Source: Octopus vulgaris (taxonomy: Eukaryota). Taken from it: a stretch of 64,000 bases of DNA. Both the position numbers and the translations under genes were made by a program. This document shows, piece by piece, positions 2,755 through 63,590 of the stretch. A model generated the notes under the pieces. That model was not told the origin of the DNA. It saw nothing but the letters and a program-made list of their open reading frames with translations, and did not search any database. Each line of letters starts with the position of its first letter. Positions within the stretch are counted from its first letter, which is position 1. Location of the stretch: the NCBI GenBank assembly GCA_951406725.2, contig OX597825.1, forward strand, positions 53,754,001-53,818,000, given 5' to 3'.

Positions 2755-2930
2755 GGAATCTGATGCTGGTGTGTTTATGTATCCGTAACATAGCGGTTCG
2801 GCAAAAGAAACCGATAGAATAAGTACTAGGCTTACAAAGAATAAGTACTGGGGTCGATTCGCTCGACTAAAGGCAGTGCTCCACCATGGCCGCTGGCAAA
2901 TGATTGAAACAAGTAAAAGAGTAAAAGAGA
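2755..2930 (+). mobile_element. SINE family B, 3' fragment
   Basis: Matches the 3' half of the copies at 56170 and 56967 (ccgatagaataagtactaggcttacaaagaataag...gaaacaagtaaaagagtaaaagag). Confidence 0.9.
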
Positions 2931-3189
2931 GGGCTATATTCAAAAATATACCTGTACATACATATATACATATATATATATATGGAGCGAGAGAAAGAGA
3001 GAGAAATGCTTACATAGATTTTTACCGATATTTAGCAGAAGTAAACTTTATAATAATTACCAACGCACAAAACTCTCGGACCATGAATCATTCTGTTACT
3101 TCTGATTAATATTAATGAAAATATGCCTTTAGTCATATTTTGAGTCTTATTCTTCCTGTTTGCATCCACATACCTGTAATGTTTACATA

Positions 3190-4113
3190 TTATATGGCTG
3201 CATGAATGCAAGCATTTGCATATAGATGTAAGTATTTAGGATTTCTCGCTTTCGAACGTTCTCCTAGAATATTCCATACATTTTCAATAGGATTGAGATC
3301 TGGGCTTTGAGCAGGCCAATCCATAAGAATAACCTTTTCAGCCTTGAAGAAGTTCATGACCACCTTAGCCTTGTGACATGGGGCATTGTCCTGCATGAAT
3401 ATGGGTGGTCGCTTAGTTGAATTTCTCAGCACAGGAAAGACATGATCTTTTACAAGTTGTTTATAAACTCCTGCATTTACCTTTCCATGTAATCGCGCCA
3501 AAGGGCCCACACCATCTCCAGATATCATTCCCCAAACTATGACACATCCTCCACCGTATTTAACACTAGTCTTAAGGCATTTAGGCGACAATTTTTCACC
3601 TACTTTTCTACGAACGTACCTTTTCCCATCTGAGCCAAATAACATAAACTTAGATTCATCACTGAAATGCACCGTTTGCCATTTTTCTTGAGACCATAAC
3701 ACATGTTCGGTTGCAAAGGTAAGACGACACTTTTTATTCTTGGAGCTGATCAGTGGCTTCACTGCAGGTCCTCTTGCTTGTAGGTCATGCTCAACTAAAC
3801 GACGAGACACAGTTTTTCGAGATAAAGTTTTCTTCAATACAATGCTCATTTTCCGAGAAACAACAGCAGCAGTTTTAAATCTGTCCTTTTTAACCAACTT
3901 TACCATAGCACGATCTTCTCTCTTGGTCGTTTTTCTTGGACTACCTGTAAACTTTCTTGCTTCACACGAACCACAATCATCGTAGACCTTAAGAATACCG
4001 TGTAGAACACTTTTTGACTTGTTAACAATCTGTGCAATAGATCCAATACTTAAATTATCCTTCCCTCGAAGCTTAATAATCTACTGACGAATTGGTAACG
4101 GAGTAAGTGGCAT
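3190..4113 (-). pseudogene. Tc1-like DD34E transposase, one premature stop and truncated C-terminus
   Basis: FSDESKF, QDNAPCH and WPAQSPDLNPIEN motifs with exactly 34 aa between the second D and E; in-frame upstream ATG at 4113 (MPLTPLPIRQ*, TAG at 4081-4083) adds the HTH region; similarity ends after RNPK near 3235. Confidence 0.93.
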
Positions 4114-4640
4114 TATATAAACAAAGTACACTTTAAATATTCTTACTAATGTCTAGTAAACGAACCGTCACGTAAACAAATTCAAAACATTAGAGTTCGC
4201 CGGTTAAATATATTAAAACACGGAGTAAAAGCAACCGTTCTGATCATTTTGGCCGCCATGGGTTTTTCAGTAAATCACTAACTCATCTATAACTTTTGTA
4301 TTATCCTCTCAAATTACACCAAAATCTCAGGCAATAACAAATAATATCGTATTTATTGTCTGTGAAAATTATAGAATATAAAACAACTTTGATATGTATA
4401 GGTATATTTTTGAATATAGCCCTCTCTTTTACTCTTTTACTTGTTTTAATCATTTGTCAGCGGCCATGGTGGAGCACAGCCTTTAGTCGAGAGAATCGAC
4501 CCCAGTACTTATTCTTTGTAAGCCTAGTACTTATTCTATCGGTTTCTTTTGTTTCTATCGGTTTCTTTGATAAAAAATTATATCTACTTTTCTGACGAAA
4601 ACAATGCCGTTCTGAACATTTTGGCCGCCACTGCACTGTA
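3235..4640 (-). mobile_element. Tc1-family DNA transposon, 3' end and right TIR missing
   Basis: Transposase ORF plus 5' terminus reading TA-CAGTG(CAGTG)GCGGCCAAAATGTTCAGAAC on the minus strand; the same 22-bp motif recurs internally near 4237-4258. Confidence 0.9.
4422..4567 (-). mobile_element. SINE family B, 3' fragment inside the Tc1 5' region
   Basis: Reverse complement of about 2800-2930. Confidence 0.88.
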
Positions 4641-25340: not shown

Positions 25341-25343
<3 letters not shown>

Positions 25344-25680
25344 TTTGTCTCATTTGGTCTAAAGTCGTAAGACAACCACCGTTATATTTTGTTTATCCAT
25401 TACTGTTTTCAATTTCGTTTTCGTCTCTTGTATTTACATCCGTCTCTTGCGTTTACATTCTTGTCTTCTACCAAGAAATCTAATGCTTACAGCTTAGTTT
25501 TTTTCTTGTGGCTGGCCGAGTTGGAGCAAATATCAGAATTGAACAGCCGAAATTTGCTATGATGATTCGGTGTCTGACTGAAGATTGAAGGCTTCGAATG
25601 ATTTGTCTGTGTTCCGTGTTCGTCCCTTCCTGTATTTCACGTTCTTTATATATAAAAACATTTATTCAAACATTTATTCT
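25341..25680 (+). mobile_element. TA-embedded non-coding element with reverse-order hammerhead motif
   Basis: Homologous to the reverse complement of 30645-31020; flanked by (TA)n on both sides. Confidence 0.75.
25515..25593 (+). ncRNA. Hammerhead-like motif, non-canonical strand order with kink-turn
   Basis: gccgagttg-GA-gcaaat-A-tcaga-attgaac-agcc-GAA-atttgc-tat-GA-tgattcggt-g-tctga-CTGAAGA-ttgaa-ggct; all helices pair. Confidence 0.65.
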
Positions 25681-29983: not shown

Positions 29984-30041
<58 letters not shown>

Positions 30042-30044
30042 AAA

Positions 30045-31020
30045 AATATATATATATAAATACAAAATGGGACAAGGACGCAAAACACTCAAAGAGACGA
30101 CACAAAAGACGGACGGGTCATTCGAAGCCTCTAATCTTCAGTCAAGCATTAGATTTCTTGGAAAAAATAATAGTAATAACAGGACAAAAACAGCATGTGT
30201 CTTACGACTTTAGACGGTTCAACTTAGCTTAGCTGGCGTATTTGGAAAAAAATGCCTTTGCGGCAGACGAAGAAAACGATGTTTTCGTGGCGGTGGTCAC
30301 GTGAGAGGAGAAGAGAAAGAAAAAAAGGGGGCAAAGGAATCAAAGAGAGAGAGAAAAAGAGGGACAAAGGCACCGACGGGGGGGAAGAGAGAGAAAGAAA
30401 GAATTAAAGAGGGGAGAAGAAAGAGAGCGTGCCAAGGATTGGCTTGGCGACAGAATCAGTGAGGTGCAAAGTGAGAAAGACAGAGAAATGTGAGAGAGTG
30501 GGGAAAGAGGAGACCAAAGAATCAGAGGCAAGAAAGGAGAAAGTCAGAGGCTAGTGAAGTATAGAAAAAGTGTGTGTAGAAGTCGTACAATAGTGGAATG
30601 CTTACATACATAAGAGAACAAGATGTACGTTACGCCATAATAATATATGTATAAAAATATATATATAAAAATATAAAATGGGACGAGAACGCAAAACATT
30701 CAAAGAGACGACACAAAAAACAGACGCGTCATTCGAAGCCTCTAATCTTCAGTCAAGAACCGGATCATCCTCGCAATTTCGGCTGATTAATCTTGAGATC
30801 GCTCCGATCCGGCCAGCCCCAAGGAAAAACTAAGCTACGAGCATTAGATTTCTTGGAAAAAGAATCGAATGTATACGAAACAAGGACAGAAAAACGGACG
30901 ATGCCACACGAATATAAATACAAAAAACAATAATAGTAATAACAGGACAAAAACAGCGGGTGTCTTACGATTTTAGACAGTTCAATTTAGCTTAACTGGC
31001 GTATTTGGAAAAAAATGCCT
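30045..31020 (-). mobile_element. ~975-bp non-coding element: two direct repeats around a purine/pyrimidine-skewed spacer, between TA tracts
   Basis: About 30045-30257 and 30645-31020 share aaaatgggac...ttcgaagcctctaatcttcagtcaag and both end ggcgtatttggaaaaaaatgcct; the left copy has internal deletions. Confidence 0.8.
30737..30813 (-). ncRNA. Hammerhead-like motif, non-canonical strand order with kink-turn (best copy)
   Basis: Minus strand: gccggatcg-GA-gcgat-C-tcaaga-ttaatc-agcc-GAA-attgc-gag-GA-tgatccggt-tcttga-CTGAAGA-ttaga-ggct. Confidence 0.7.
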
Positions 31021-31037
31021 ATATATATATATATATA

Positions 31038-32600
31038 ATTATTGCAGCATCTGTTTGTTAGCTGTTGCTGGAAAGGTCCTCTGTTGGGTAATGTTGGATA
31101 GATTGCCTCTGCACATTGCTGATGAGGTTCTAACAGAATTAGAATGTGGGTTTATGGATTGTAGGAGTACTATGGATATGATATTTTCAGCTAGACAGTT
31201 GCAAGAGAAGTGCATCGAACAGAATATGGACTTATACCAGGTTGTCATTGCCCTAACTATAGCGTTTGATTCTATCAATAGAATTGCACTTTGGGAGATC
31301 CTAATAAAGCTAGCCTGCCCTGAAAAATTTGTGAGAAAGCTTAGACAGTTTCATGACCAGATGGAAGTGAAAGTTAATGTTGGAGGTACCTTATCAGATC
31401 CATTTTCTGTACAAAATGGTGAAAAGCAAGGTGATATGCAGCACATGGTCAATGCGATTTGTGTAACATGTGCAGCATTGGGTCTAACGATCAATCCAAT
31501 AAAAACTGTTATAACGTCCGCTCCCGCCGAGATGTATGTGGAACCTTTTATAAGTGTGAATGGTCAAAGGTTGGAGACTGTACTTAGATTTATTTATTTG
31601 GGAAGTACCTTGAGTACTGCTGGTTTTGATAATGAAATGTCATACAGGAAAAGCAGGGATAGTGCTTATGGTAGGCTTGATAGGCGTCTGTGAAAACACC
31701 ATAATGTATCTTCACAAATTAAAGTTTATATAACACATGCGTCCTCCCATCTTTGCTATATGGAAGTGAGGCATGGGTTGTTTACCATAGGCAGGTAAGG
31801 CAATTGCAACGATATTATCAATACTGTCTGAGAGAAATTTGGGGGATGAACTGGAAAATGGTTATTAGTAATGTGGGGTTGTAATGTGGGCTATTAGTAA
31901 TGTGGGGTTGCATGAGAGGATTGGCAGTATAAGTATAGAGTCAATGATTTTGCAAAGATATTTGAGGTGGGGGGACATTTGTTAAGGATGAGTGATGAGC
32001 GACTGCCCAAGCAGCTATTGTATGGTGAGCTGGAAGATAGCAGGAGACCAACTCATAAGGTGTAAGGATTGCTTTAAATTGCTCTAATACAGACAGGAAT
32101 TAGGAGAGGGAGGCACAAGGCCATGATGGATGGAGGAAGATAGTGCATGATGGTTGTTCAAGGTCTGAGAGGGAGAGAATGAAGTATGAGGGAATTAGGA
32201 GGGGGCTTAGAAGGAGGACTCTGGAAAGTAAGGGAGTGTTGATTTTTATGTGTGTGGTTTGTGGGAGGGGGTGTTTGAGATGTGCAAGCTTGGTGAGCCA
32301 TCAAAAGTCGCAGGAGAAATCGACCCATGATAAACAGTGATGTGGCTATTAAACTTCTCTACAAAACAAGTGTAAAATATAGGAGGATTTGCCTCTCAGT
32401 GGGAGGTCTAAAAATACATGTTAAGAGAGTGCATATGATGGCACCTGTTTCTCCTTCCAGCCAACACAGTTTTCCTGTATGTAATAAATTGTGTAAAAGC
32501 TTTGCTGCGCTTAACTTAAACCTCATATAAGGGTATCACAATGATGAATCATTTCAGTAAATCTTCTTGGCAATAGCTTTTCTCGTGTAACGGGGGTGTA
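31038..32600 (+). mobile_element. RTE (BovB-like) LINE, 5'-truncated, with internal RT deletion
   Basis: CGF...RSTMDMIFSARQLQEKCIEQN, FIYLGSTLS, LPSLLYGSEAW, RMSDERLPKQLLYGEL, then degenerate zinc-finger-like motifs; the YADD segment is absent. Confidence 0.92.
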
Positions 32601-44562: not shown

Positions 44563-44835
44563 ATATGTCAATGTTATTGCTGTTGGTATTGCAATAGTGA
44601 TATTTCTTTCGTATTTAGTTCTTTTTTTCTTTTTTTTTGTGTCACTACAGCAATATATTTTCCCGGAATCTAATAAACCGATTGGTGGATTTTGATAGAC
44701 AGGGTACAGCTGAAGAAACTCAAAGAAATCCGACGGCGCTTGATTGCATTCCGCGTGAGGAAGCACCTGCACACTGCTGAAAAGTATTTGTGTATATAGG
44801 TAATCTAAAGAATGATCTTATATAATGATATAATC

Positions 44836-45122
44836 TTTTATTCTTTAACAAGTTTCAGTCATTTAACTGCGACCATCCTGAAGAACCACTTTGAAGGGTT
44901 TCAGTCGAATAAATCGATCCTAGGACTTATCCTTTCTAAGCCTGGTACTTATTCTATAGGTCTCTATTGCCGAGCCGCTAAGTTACGGGGACATTAACAC
45001 ACCACTCATTGGTTTTCAATTGATGGTTGGGGTAAATCAAAGATATAGACACATAAACTTATACACACACACGCACACACACGCACACACACTCACACAC
45101 ACACACACAATTACACAAACAC

Positions 45123-49544: not shown

Positions 49545-50033
49545 GCATTTATATTCATACAACTACACATTCACGCACACCCACATTCACACAGACATGA
49601 ACATACATATATATGTGTGAGTTGGTCTGTGTGTGTCTGTCTGTCTGTCCGTGTATGTAGGTAGTTGGGTATGCGTATATATATATATATACATACATAC
49701 TACCATACATATATATTCAAACAAATTGATTTATCATTCTATTAGATTATTGTTTGGCCAAAGACGTTGCGATTGTCAAAGCAATGCATTGATATACACA
49801 TTTGGGAGTCATTAAAATAAATGTAGGAATGTCTAATTATTTATGAACAATTCATTAAGAATATGTCTGTAATGATTGATTAATTCGCTCATATTTATAA
49901 GTTCTTTAAAGCTTTACTTTAAAGTCGTAATTGAATTCTTAAATTACCTTCAACATAATATTGCTTGCTGTATGTCAGCTGTAAATCTGTGAATCTGTGT
50001 CACATCATCAAAGATTGGTATTCAATCATTCTT

Positions 50034-56169: not shown

Positions 56170-56582
56170 TTACTCTTTTACTCTTCTACTTGTTTCAGTC
56201 ACTTGACTGTGGCCGTGTTGGAGTACCACCTTTAGTCGAGCAAATACACCCCAGGATTTATTCTTCGTAAGTCTAGTTCTTGCTCTATCGTTTTCTTTTG
56301 CCGAACCGCTAGGTTACGGGGACGTAAACACACCAGCAGTGGTTGTCGAGCGATGTTGGGAGGACAAATACAGAGACACAAACATATACACACACATACA
56401 TATATATATACATATATACCACAGGCTTCTTTCAGTTTCCGTCTACCAAATCCACTCACAAGGCTTTGGTCGGCCCGAGGCTATAGTAGAAGACACTTGG
56501 CCAAGGTGCCACGCAGTGGGACTGAACCCGGAACTATGTGGTTGCTAAGCAAACTACTTACCACACAGCCACTCCTACGCCT
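56170..56582 (-). mobile_element. SINE family B, full-length
   Basis: tRNA-like head (ggcgtaggagtggctgtgtggtaag...gggttcagtccc), internal microsatellite, tail aagagtaaaagagtaa. Confidence 0.95.
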
Positions 56583-56966: not shown

Positions 56967-57169
56967 TCTTTCTTTTAATTGTTTCAGTCATTTGACTACG
57001 GCCATGCAGGAGCACCGCATTTAGTCGATTAAATCGACCCCAGGACTTATTCTTTGTAAGCCTAGTACTTATGATATCGGTCTCTCTTGCCGAGCAGCTA
57101 AGTGACGGGACGCAAACACACCAGCATCGGTTGTCAAGCGATGTTGGGGGGACAAACAGAGACACACAA

Positions 57170-62839: not shown

Positions 62840-63590
62840 ATATATGTATATATAATTTCTTTTTTAAATGGAATAAGAACGTAACGGACAATTAAAGCAT
62901 ACGGACAGATAGACGATACAAAGACAGACAGGAAAAACCAGGATGGGTCATCTGCGGCCCTCTATTCATCAGTGAAGCTTGCAATTAACATTACAGTTTC
63001 AGCCTGTTACACTTCAGACTATTCAAAACTGGTAACCCCACCCCACAAAAAATCTAAGATAAGGGCATTAACGTTTTGGAAGAAAGCAGGCGAATGTGTA
63101 CAGCACAGACAAAAAAATAACGGAGAAGATTACAAAGACAAACAACAAAAGAAAAACAAAATGTGTCTTTTGACTAATAAAGACAAGTTAAGTTCAGCTG
63201 GCGTGAGGAGTGAAAGCCTTGTAGCGCAAACATAGAGGAAATTCTGAACACAGAAAATCAAGGTGTTGCACGGGTACAGGTCAGGCCAAGAAGGAAAGAT
63301 CATACTTGGCCGAACACCGGTCACGTGGAAGGAGTAGAGAGAGGTAGGGGCAAATTGAAGAATTAGGGAAGAGAGAATGTGAGAGAGACACAGAAAAAAC
63401 GTACATATGAGATAATGAAGGAAAGTAGAAAGTTTAACGAAAGAGAATGCCAAGCAACGTGTGAGATGGGAAGCGAGAAAAAGGAAGAAGGAAAGGAAGA
63501 AGACAGTATAAGGGGGACTAAACGAAGGAGAAATAAAAGTTATACAGAATTTAGATACATATTTACTTACAAGCATATATATTGCACCTG
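62840..63590 (-). mobile_element. Diverged relative of the 30045-31020 element (one repeat plus spacer)
   Basis: Shares gggtcat...tcatcag, ctaag...gcatta...ttgga and ggtcacgtg followed by a purine-rich tract. Confidence 0.6.
62956..63036 (-). ncRNA. Hammerhead-like motif, non-canonical strand order
   Basis: Minus strand: ttaccagtttt-GA-atagt-C-tgaagt-gtaaca-ggct-GAA-actgt-aat-gt-taattgcaa-gcttca-CTGATGA-atagag-ggcc. Confidence 0.6.

Follow-up and report, generated by a model that had tools for sequence, protein, structure and literature searches.

A likely Naiad-derived element of Octopus vulgaris with a predicted hammerhead opened between A9 and G10.1

At about 30 kb in the stretch of Octopus vulgaris DNA analysed here (64,000 nucleotides, hereafter the window), two related repeats enclose a non-coding spacer between TA tracts. 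A preliminary description, made from the letters alone, had taken this arrangement for a retrozyme-like element with ribozyme-bearing repeats, which raises the question of what kind of element it is and what RNA its repeats encode. We think it quite probable that the 30-kb locus is a 5'-truncated, partial-tandem insertion of a Naiad-type Penelope-like element (PLE), the 3' end of which carries a rearranged hammerhead core predicted to self-cleave.

Repeats, spacer and further copies

The sense strand at 30 kb is the minus strand (Table 1), and most of the earlier outline of the locus held. The repeat of ~375 bp at 30645-31020 measures 376 nt (repeat A) and is homologous to repeat B at 93.8% identity (210/224 aligned bases); the ~385-bp skewed spacer is 387 nt long, with 76% pyrimidine on the sense strand, and TA tracts lie on both sides of the element. 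The second repeat was rightly described as deleted and as keeping the CUGAAGA strand, but it starts at ~30034 and not at 30045. Compared with repeat A, it carries a deletion of 84 nt (A 30756-30839) and another of 68 nt (A 30861-30928). The larger one takes away the ribozyme, leaving only CUGAAGA, X' and the end of the stem I 3' strand. In agreement with the claim that there is no ORF, the longest ATG ORFs in spacer plus repeat have 29 aa on the sense and 51 aa on the antisense strand, and no GIY-YIG, CxC or RT ORF of the Naiad type was found within the unit or attached to it inside the 64-kb window. The predicted cut-to-cut distance of 763 nt agrees, in length only, with the unit of roughly 750 nt proposed earlier; because the ribozyme of repeat B is lost, the 30-kb locus itself is unable to release a unit-length RNA.

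Two further copies, a solo repeat in (TA)n and a diverged repeat followed by a spacer, had also been claimed. Both repeats are homologous to repeat A, with scores that 0/300 shuffles of either kind (dinucleotide or block) reached, but the 63-kb and 30-kb spacers show only weak homology to each other: the score was reached by 1/300 dinucleotide and 29/300 block shuffles, and the similarity spans only about 30264-30543 of the 30-kb spacer. The three homologous copies are 60-70% alike and have a common 3' end and different 5' ends, with the predicted cut 148-177 nt from the 3' end. At two of the three loci the (TA)n setting is clean on both sides, and the third lies in degraded TA. The host genome is rich in microsatellites. 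When the window was searched with a profile built from the three repeats, no additional copy emerged, only a doubtful low-complexity match at 49626-49712.

Other features of the window were considered as possible relatives. A tRNA-headed SINE was rejected for the element, as no tRNA was found. The reverse transcriptase remnant next to the 5' TA tract, which looks LINE-type by its motifs, lies on the opposite strand; we therefore set aside a link to it, and it is probably unrelated to the hammerhead element. Elsewhere in the window, a Tc1/mariner-type transposase remnant is flanked by 159-bp inverted arms that are 97% alike (2802-4551). The outer ~120 bp of these arms correspond to a dispersed repeat that occurs another three times in the window (44834-44969, 56173-56300 and 56971-57089), and the inverted repeats of the remnant may have been built from a SINE. 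As a separate observation, the spacers share a 9-nt word with an E-box-like palindrome at 30294-30302 and 63319-63327, a possible internal promoter element.

Table 1. Features of the window, with the parts of the repeat A motif listed 5' to 3' along the RNA
Feature	Position	Strand	Remarks
Tc1/mariner-type transposase remnant	3193-4080	-	Pfam HTH_Tnp_Tc3_2 and DDE_3; inside 2802-4551
Solo, 5'-shorter copy	25341-25680	+	another subfamily; 69% identity to repeat A (E 1e-30); (TA)n on both sides
Solo-copy permuted hammerhead (predicted)	25486-25590	+	10.1 at 25510, U16.1 at 25531, G12 at 25549, C3 at 25578; predicted cut after 25532 (AUA)
(TA)n tract	29992-30037		at the 3' end of the element
Repeat B	~30034-30257	-	3' end of downstream copy; ribozyme lost except CUGAAGA, X' and end of stem I 3' strand
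Pyrimidine-rich non-coding spacer	30258-30644	-	belongs to the upstream region of the unit or of a longer 3' UTR; present in many copies in read sets
Repeat A	30645-31020	-	3'-terminal 376 nt of element; likely 5'-truncated upstream copy (pseudo-LTR)
Repeat A permuted hammerhead (predicted)	30740-30841	-	parts in the following rows
X	30841-30835	-	bulge at 30838
Hairpin Y	30834-30819	-
Stem II 5' strand (10.x)	30818-30814	-
Helix Z	30812-30805	-
k-turn GA	30804-30803	-
Stem III 16.x	30802-30798	-
C17	30797	-
Stem I 1.x	30796-30791	-
Stem II 11.x	30785-30781	-
GAAA	30780-30777	-
15.x	30777-30773	-
k-turn bulge and GA	30772-30770, 30769-30768	-	bulge, then GA
Z'	30767-30760	-
2.x	30758-30753	-
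CUGAAGA	30752-30746	-
X'	30745-30740	-
Predicted cleavage site	30796-30797	-	after AUC; 152 nt from element 3' end; by analogy with hammerhead numbering
(TA)9 tract	31020-31037		at the 5' end of the insertion
Reverse transcriptase remnant	31040-31690	+	Pfam RVT_1; starts right after 5' TA tract, strand opposite to element
Diverged copy	62840-63205	-	third subfamily; homologous to repeat A (E 3e-13)
Diverged-copy permuted hammerhead (predicted)	62957-63066	-	CUGAUGA, GAAAC, GUC; predicted cut after 63017
Pyrimidine-rich stretch	63206-63540	-	weakly similar to the 30-kb spacer

Comparison of 30258-31045 with four public runs (of 24 listed) returned 8953, 7407, 2940 and 1401 contigs matching the unit, many of which are 95-99% alike. 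Summed depth, which is not a copy number, peaks on the predicted ribozyme at roughly 20-30 times that of the spacer and the repeat flanks. Loose ends of contigs run from inside the 5' part of the repeat into (TA)n, pointing to further truncated copies. The last ~90 nt of the spacer before repeat A are covered by many contigs, and depth drops about 20-fold within them; either private changes in the 30-kb copy or a shorter common unit could explain this drop. On balance we lean towards a non-autonomous unit of ~0.7 kb rather than pieces of a long coding element. At 30745-30749 and 30818-30820, loose ends also suggest additional subfamilies with N7=G and with other bases after A9 and in hairpin Y.

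The order of the parts at 30 kb might also be accidental, if a solo tail had inserted into the TA-rich start of an older copy made of spacer and tail, in which case no unit-length RNA would ever have existed. This reading concerns the arrangement only, so the ribozyme finding is unaffected by it. The family does target (TA)n and the junction of repeat A and spacer is TA-rich, the 93.8% identity of the two repeats is no higher than that between typical family members, and among the joints listed there is none from spacer to repeat, in a comparison that skips the TA-rich ends and hence is no measure of tandem copies. However, partial tandems are the normal product of PLE insertion (PMC8557442, PMC11167929), and the end of the spacer is itself found in many contigs. 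We consider an accident rather unlikely and retain the partial-tandem insertion as our reading of the locus.

A hammerhead core in a rearranged order

The hammerhead claimed for the repeat is present in part of its meaning: the core bases CUGANGA, GAAA and NUH are complete in 3/3 intact copies, but the motif is not of type I, II or III, and its order is non-circularly permuted. The stem II 5' strand (10.x) comes first, followed by the cleavage site, GAAA and CUGANGA (10.x-S-G-C'). All intact copies share the order of parts given for repeat A in Table 1, with a short linker between stem I and the 3' strand of stem II. No Rfam family passed its gathering threshold anywhere in the window, and within 30000-31100 no ribozyme family was matched even with the cut-off relaxed to E=10, so that this form of hammerhead is uncatalogued. 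Types I, II and III (circular orders CGS, GSC and SCG) are ruled out by the strand order together with the missing Rfam match; for type II, a length of 24 nt is also too short for two hairpins. HDV-like and twister folds were rejected as well, with their core words absent and no Rfam match.

The main departure from a hammerhead lies around stem II. G10.1 is located 72 nt upstream of A9 (30818 vs 30746), whereas the hammerhead norm is consecutive or 1-2 nt apart. The bases after A9 show no pairing with 11.x until 5-6 nt further on, and the best partner for stem II is upstream, 5' of all other parts. Instead, the bases after A9 pair with X, which ends directly before hairpin Y, which in turn ends directly before G10.1. 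Helix Z occupies the interval from the stem II 5' strand to stem III, and its junction with stem III consists of a 3-nt bulge and tandem G.A/A.G. A standard k-turn separates two helices by a 3-nt bulge and, after it, tandem G.A and A.G pairs. Judged by its sequence, the junction of stem III and Z is a predicted standard k-turn in repeat A and the solo copy, and is one base off in the diverged copy. An obligate dimer is not favoured, since the k-turn may offer a path in cis.

Non-circularly permuted hammerheads of types SGC, CSG and GCS were described by Eckert, Friedrich, Weinberg and Weinberg in 2023 (PMC10085705), where the SGC order is reported from metatranscriptomes only. In our model, the chain is a circular permutation of this SGC/CSG/GCS class, opened between A9 and G10.1. 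It shares with the published types the Site-GAAA-CUGANGA order, the pseudoknotted core, a short linker from stem I to stem II and a helix that pairs extensions of 10.x and 2.x ('interaction I' there, Z here). Unlike those types, it is closed by X and Y and has Z joined to stem III via the k-turn. Block C, made up of a stem I strand, CUGANGA and a stem II strand, is assumed there to be unbreakable, whereas the window motif splits it at A9/G10.1. The order lies outside the six permutations of that scheme, and its descriptor, which needs CUGAUGA(U)G and then stem II, would miss the window motif.

To what extent is this fold real? In the structural register, the proportion of paired cells was 15/15 for stem III, 17/18 for stem I, 14/15 for stem II, 18/18 for X, 19/24 for Z and 9/15 for Y, which is thus the weak hairpin. 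When the copies were aligned with MAFFT without regard to the structure, 89.2% of 102 cells were paired and two-sided changes occurred in 11/34 pairs, values of which neither was reached by any of 500 shuffles; slid partners gave 31-49% paired. Stems I and III, built from different sequences in each copy, covary, the pairing of X with the bases after A9 shows compensatory changes, and stem II has no two-sided change in the window copies. The window contains 31 CUGANGA sites, of which a full-order descriptor selected 3, one in each of the homologous copies; 300 shuffled windows yielded 2 matches (0.007 per window). With an earlier descriptor, there were no matches among 150 shuffles of the window or among 5000 shuffles made from each copy. 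Only three copies were aligned, and structure and descriptor were both derived from them, so that both controls lean in favour. Degradation is evident in the diverged copy, affecting stem II (mostly G-U), Y, Z (partly broken) and one k-turn base (a U in place of A). Minimum-energy folds give alternative pairings, and the minimum-energy z-scores of the motif are not better than those of shuffles, as expected for a pseudoknot, which minimum-energy folding cannot form.

The read sets add variants at 10 listed places in the motif. Three are in bulges, four keep their pair and one, in combination with another variant, is accommodated by a shift of a bulge; those at 30744 and 30810 break a pair unless a partner change is hidden. 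The variant at 30810 accounts for 41-77% of depth and is of CpG type. None of the listed variants falls in the core, stem I, stem II or the GA pairs of the k-turn. In addition, exact-pattern scans outside the octopus gave 0 homologs in viral contigs, 0 matches in prokaryote genomes, and 6 matches in metagenome contigs that are all due to chance, with no homology beyond the pattern.

A real fold does not have to cut. The motif could be a hammerhead-shaped signal for protein binding or RT initiation, in which the opening between A9 and G10.1 disables catalysis. The canonical hammerhead core has a metal site at these two bases, A9 and G10.1, which would favour a non-cutting signal. In vitro reconstitution has been reported for one PLE, Poseidon: its protein nicks AT-rich DNA, the hammerhead cuts only with protein, cleavage is not required for insertion and no reads ended at the site (PMC11167929). 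As cutting is dispensable in Poseidon, a conserved fold need not mean a processed RNA, and its role may be processing, protein binding or both. On the other hand, the catalytic bases and an NUH triplet (AUC, AUA or GUC) occupy the exact core positions in three subfamilies and several phyla, and position 17 is C, A or U, never G, in the parsed intact examples. We regard a non-cutting signal as unlikely, and a self-cleaving motif remains our prediction.

A second objection is that the motif could be a plain type-SGC hammerhead, in which stem II uses a 4-nt strand 5-6 nt downstream of A9 and the insert is looped out. The S, G, C order is present, and each of the three copies does offer this 4-bp pairing downstream; in published SGC ribozymes, one additional U is found at the corresponding place (supplement of PMC10085705). 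What is absent is an intact block C, with a stem II strand right after CUGANGA. Moreover, pairing with the upstream strand extends further, to 5-6 bp, in repeat A and the solo copy, and in Naiads this strand takes part in a covarying 4-6-bp stem by eye, the downstream alternative being absent or wobble-rich in the entries that were checked. Finally, X pairs with the bases that follow A9, and changes there are compensated. A plain SGC hammerhead is therefore very unlikely, and the split at A9/G10.1 is preferred.

Comparison with Naiads and retrozymes

Naiads have (TA)n targets, are 5'-truncated, form partial tandems that look like LTRs and are present in cephalopods (PMC8557442; Craig, Yushenova, Rodriguez and Arkhipova, 2021). 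They were reported to be without canonical hammerheads, yet with unexplained 'HHR_core' and 'HHR_half_core' words (PMC8557442). We read these words by eye in File S5 of that paper. The matches shown, a part of the total, comprise 19 CTGATGA places, 12 in 3' non-coding ends and 7 elsewhere; for three other CUGANGA variants 24 places are shown, 10 of them in non-coding ends. Six Chlamys places were left unparsed. By eye, the 22 non-coding 3' places divide into 11 with the split architecture, 6 with the CSG order and 5 that are unclear or not parsed. The entries with the split come from a ctenophore, in which stem I is short, from three corals that are nearly identical, from four other sources, from Octopus (two near-identical entries) and from a squid (degraded), and 2 of the 11 are imperfect. 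Among these parsed entries the upstream stem II covaries (for example GACACC/GGUGUC, GGCUCC/GGAGCC and GGGGA/UCCCC, vs GGCUG/CAGCC in the window), and the two Octopus entries appear to carry the k-turn as well.

As an observation in its own right, the consensus 3' ends of six nematode Naiads are by eye clean type-CSG hammerheads, a type until now known from two metagenome sequences.

The window family thus resembles Naiads in its (TA)n targets, 5' truncation, partial tandem, position of the motif near the 3' end and, by eye, the same RNA architecture. It differs in having no ORF and, by the words searched, in not being a curated consensus: two repeat-specific words had no match in the Naiad consensus text shown (PMC8557442). 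For these reasons family membership rests on architecture and not on sequence. A further difference is that cephalopod Naiads are described as long inactive (PMC8557442), whereas the window family is very abundant, with its many closely similar contigs. The ends of the element merge into TA tracts; the Naiad feature with which they were compared is a 30-40-bp tail at one end.

The idea of a retrozyme-like element was correct in that the element is non-coding, TA-associated, hammerhead-bearing and linked to Penelope, but it is not a plant-type one. That the 30-kb repeats are true LTRs around an internal region, as in a plant LTR retrozyme or a TRIM with solo LTRs arising by recombination, is highly improbable: the sizes (300-400-bp repeats and a 300-600-bp interior) and the repeat-interior-repeat look do match those reported by Cervera et al. 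in 2016 (PMC4918200), and a PBS-like TGGCG word lies 10 nt after repeat A, but there is no type III hammerhead, no PPT (30% purine before repeat B), no clear PBS, no TG...CA ends and no discernible TSD where the plant elements have one of 4 bp, the 5' ends vary between copies without a fixed boundary, and the fold matches Naiad 3' ends. The 'LTR' of the preliminary description is likely a pseudo-LTR, since (TA)n targets and copies that agree at the 3' end but vary at the 5' end are consistent with Naiad insertion.

A closer comparison is with animal non-LTR retrozymes, which are likewise non-coding, hammerhead-bearing and likely PLE-derived, with many of the units present as monomers (PMC7229834, Cervera and de la Pena, 2020; 10.64898/2026.07.22.740005, Li, Clavereau and Pollet, 2026). 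In the same two papers, the hammerheads are of type I, the tandem repeats mostly measure 150-450 bp and circular RNAs were demonstrated; the elements were proposed to be non-autonomous PLE derivatives. The window family differs from them in that its hammerhead is permuted, its unit measures ~0.7 kb, it targets (TA)n and each locus has a single intact ribozyme. It may be the Naiad counterpart of animal retrozymes.

Overall, we take the element to be a real family, likely derived from Naiads, with a new hammerhead topology. With somewhat less confidence than we place in our reading of the locus, we favour a broader proposal: Naiads carry hammerheads and are the natural genomic home of non-circularly permuted ones, of type CSG in nematodes and of a seventh topology, split at A9/G10.1, in ctenophores, cnidarians, arthropods and cephalopods, the window family being a k-turn-braced, self-cleaving, very high-copy non-autonomous version.

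A possible mode of action and its implications

In the folded RNA, X would stack on Y like a nicked helix, thereby holding A9 next to G10.1. Z would correspond to the helix that bridges stems I and II in the published non-circular permutations; through the k-turn it would fold back against stem III. For target-primed insertion, we propose that (TA)n is nicked by a Naiad RT/GIY-YIG protein, which may act in cis or in trans and would then copy the RNA starting at the 3' end. Copying that stops at varying points could then leave a solo tail (as at 25 kb), a tail with spacer (63 kb) or a tandem of 1.5 units (30 kb), with repeat A as the truncated upstream copy of the tandem. The ribozyme would trim read-through transcripts of tandems to unit length (763 nt in the present case), and its motif may also serve as a landmark for protein binding.

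Bacterial hammerhead variants with extra stems exist. In the mostly open-access literature on hammerhead permutations, Naiad/Penelope hammerheads and k-turn hammerheads, we found no description of a hammerhead split at A9/G10.1. Searches of PMC6765202, PMC6155905, PMC13725137 and PMC10162972 gave only a general remark that there are variants with additional helices.

If cleavage occurs as predicted, the window motif is the ribozyme that Naiads were reported to lack, which would overturn the published view of Naiads thriving without hammerheads. It would also move non-circularly permuted ribozymes from anonymous metatranscriptome contigs to high-copy animal genomes, and add a topology that the six-permutation scheme rules out by assumption. 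The k-turn offers a possible answer to a question left open by Eckert et al. (2023), namely how stem III and the bridging helix can be connected end to end. The natural occurrence of a k-turn in a ribozyme would also suggest possible control by an L7Ae-family protein. Since the motif escapes current Rfam and RNAMotif screens, it is likely that many further examples have yet to be discovered.

Finally, a short word just 3' of X' (30735-30728 on the minus strand) is strongly conserved in repeats A and B, in the solo copy and in the subfamilies seen at loose contig ends, and is a candidate signal for RT start or protein binding.
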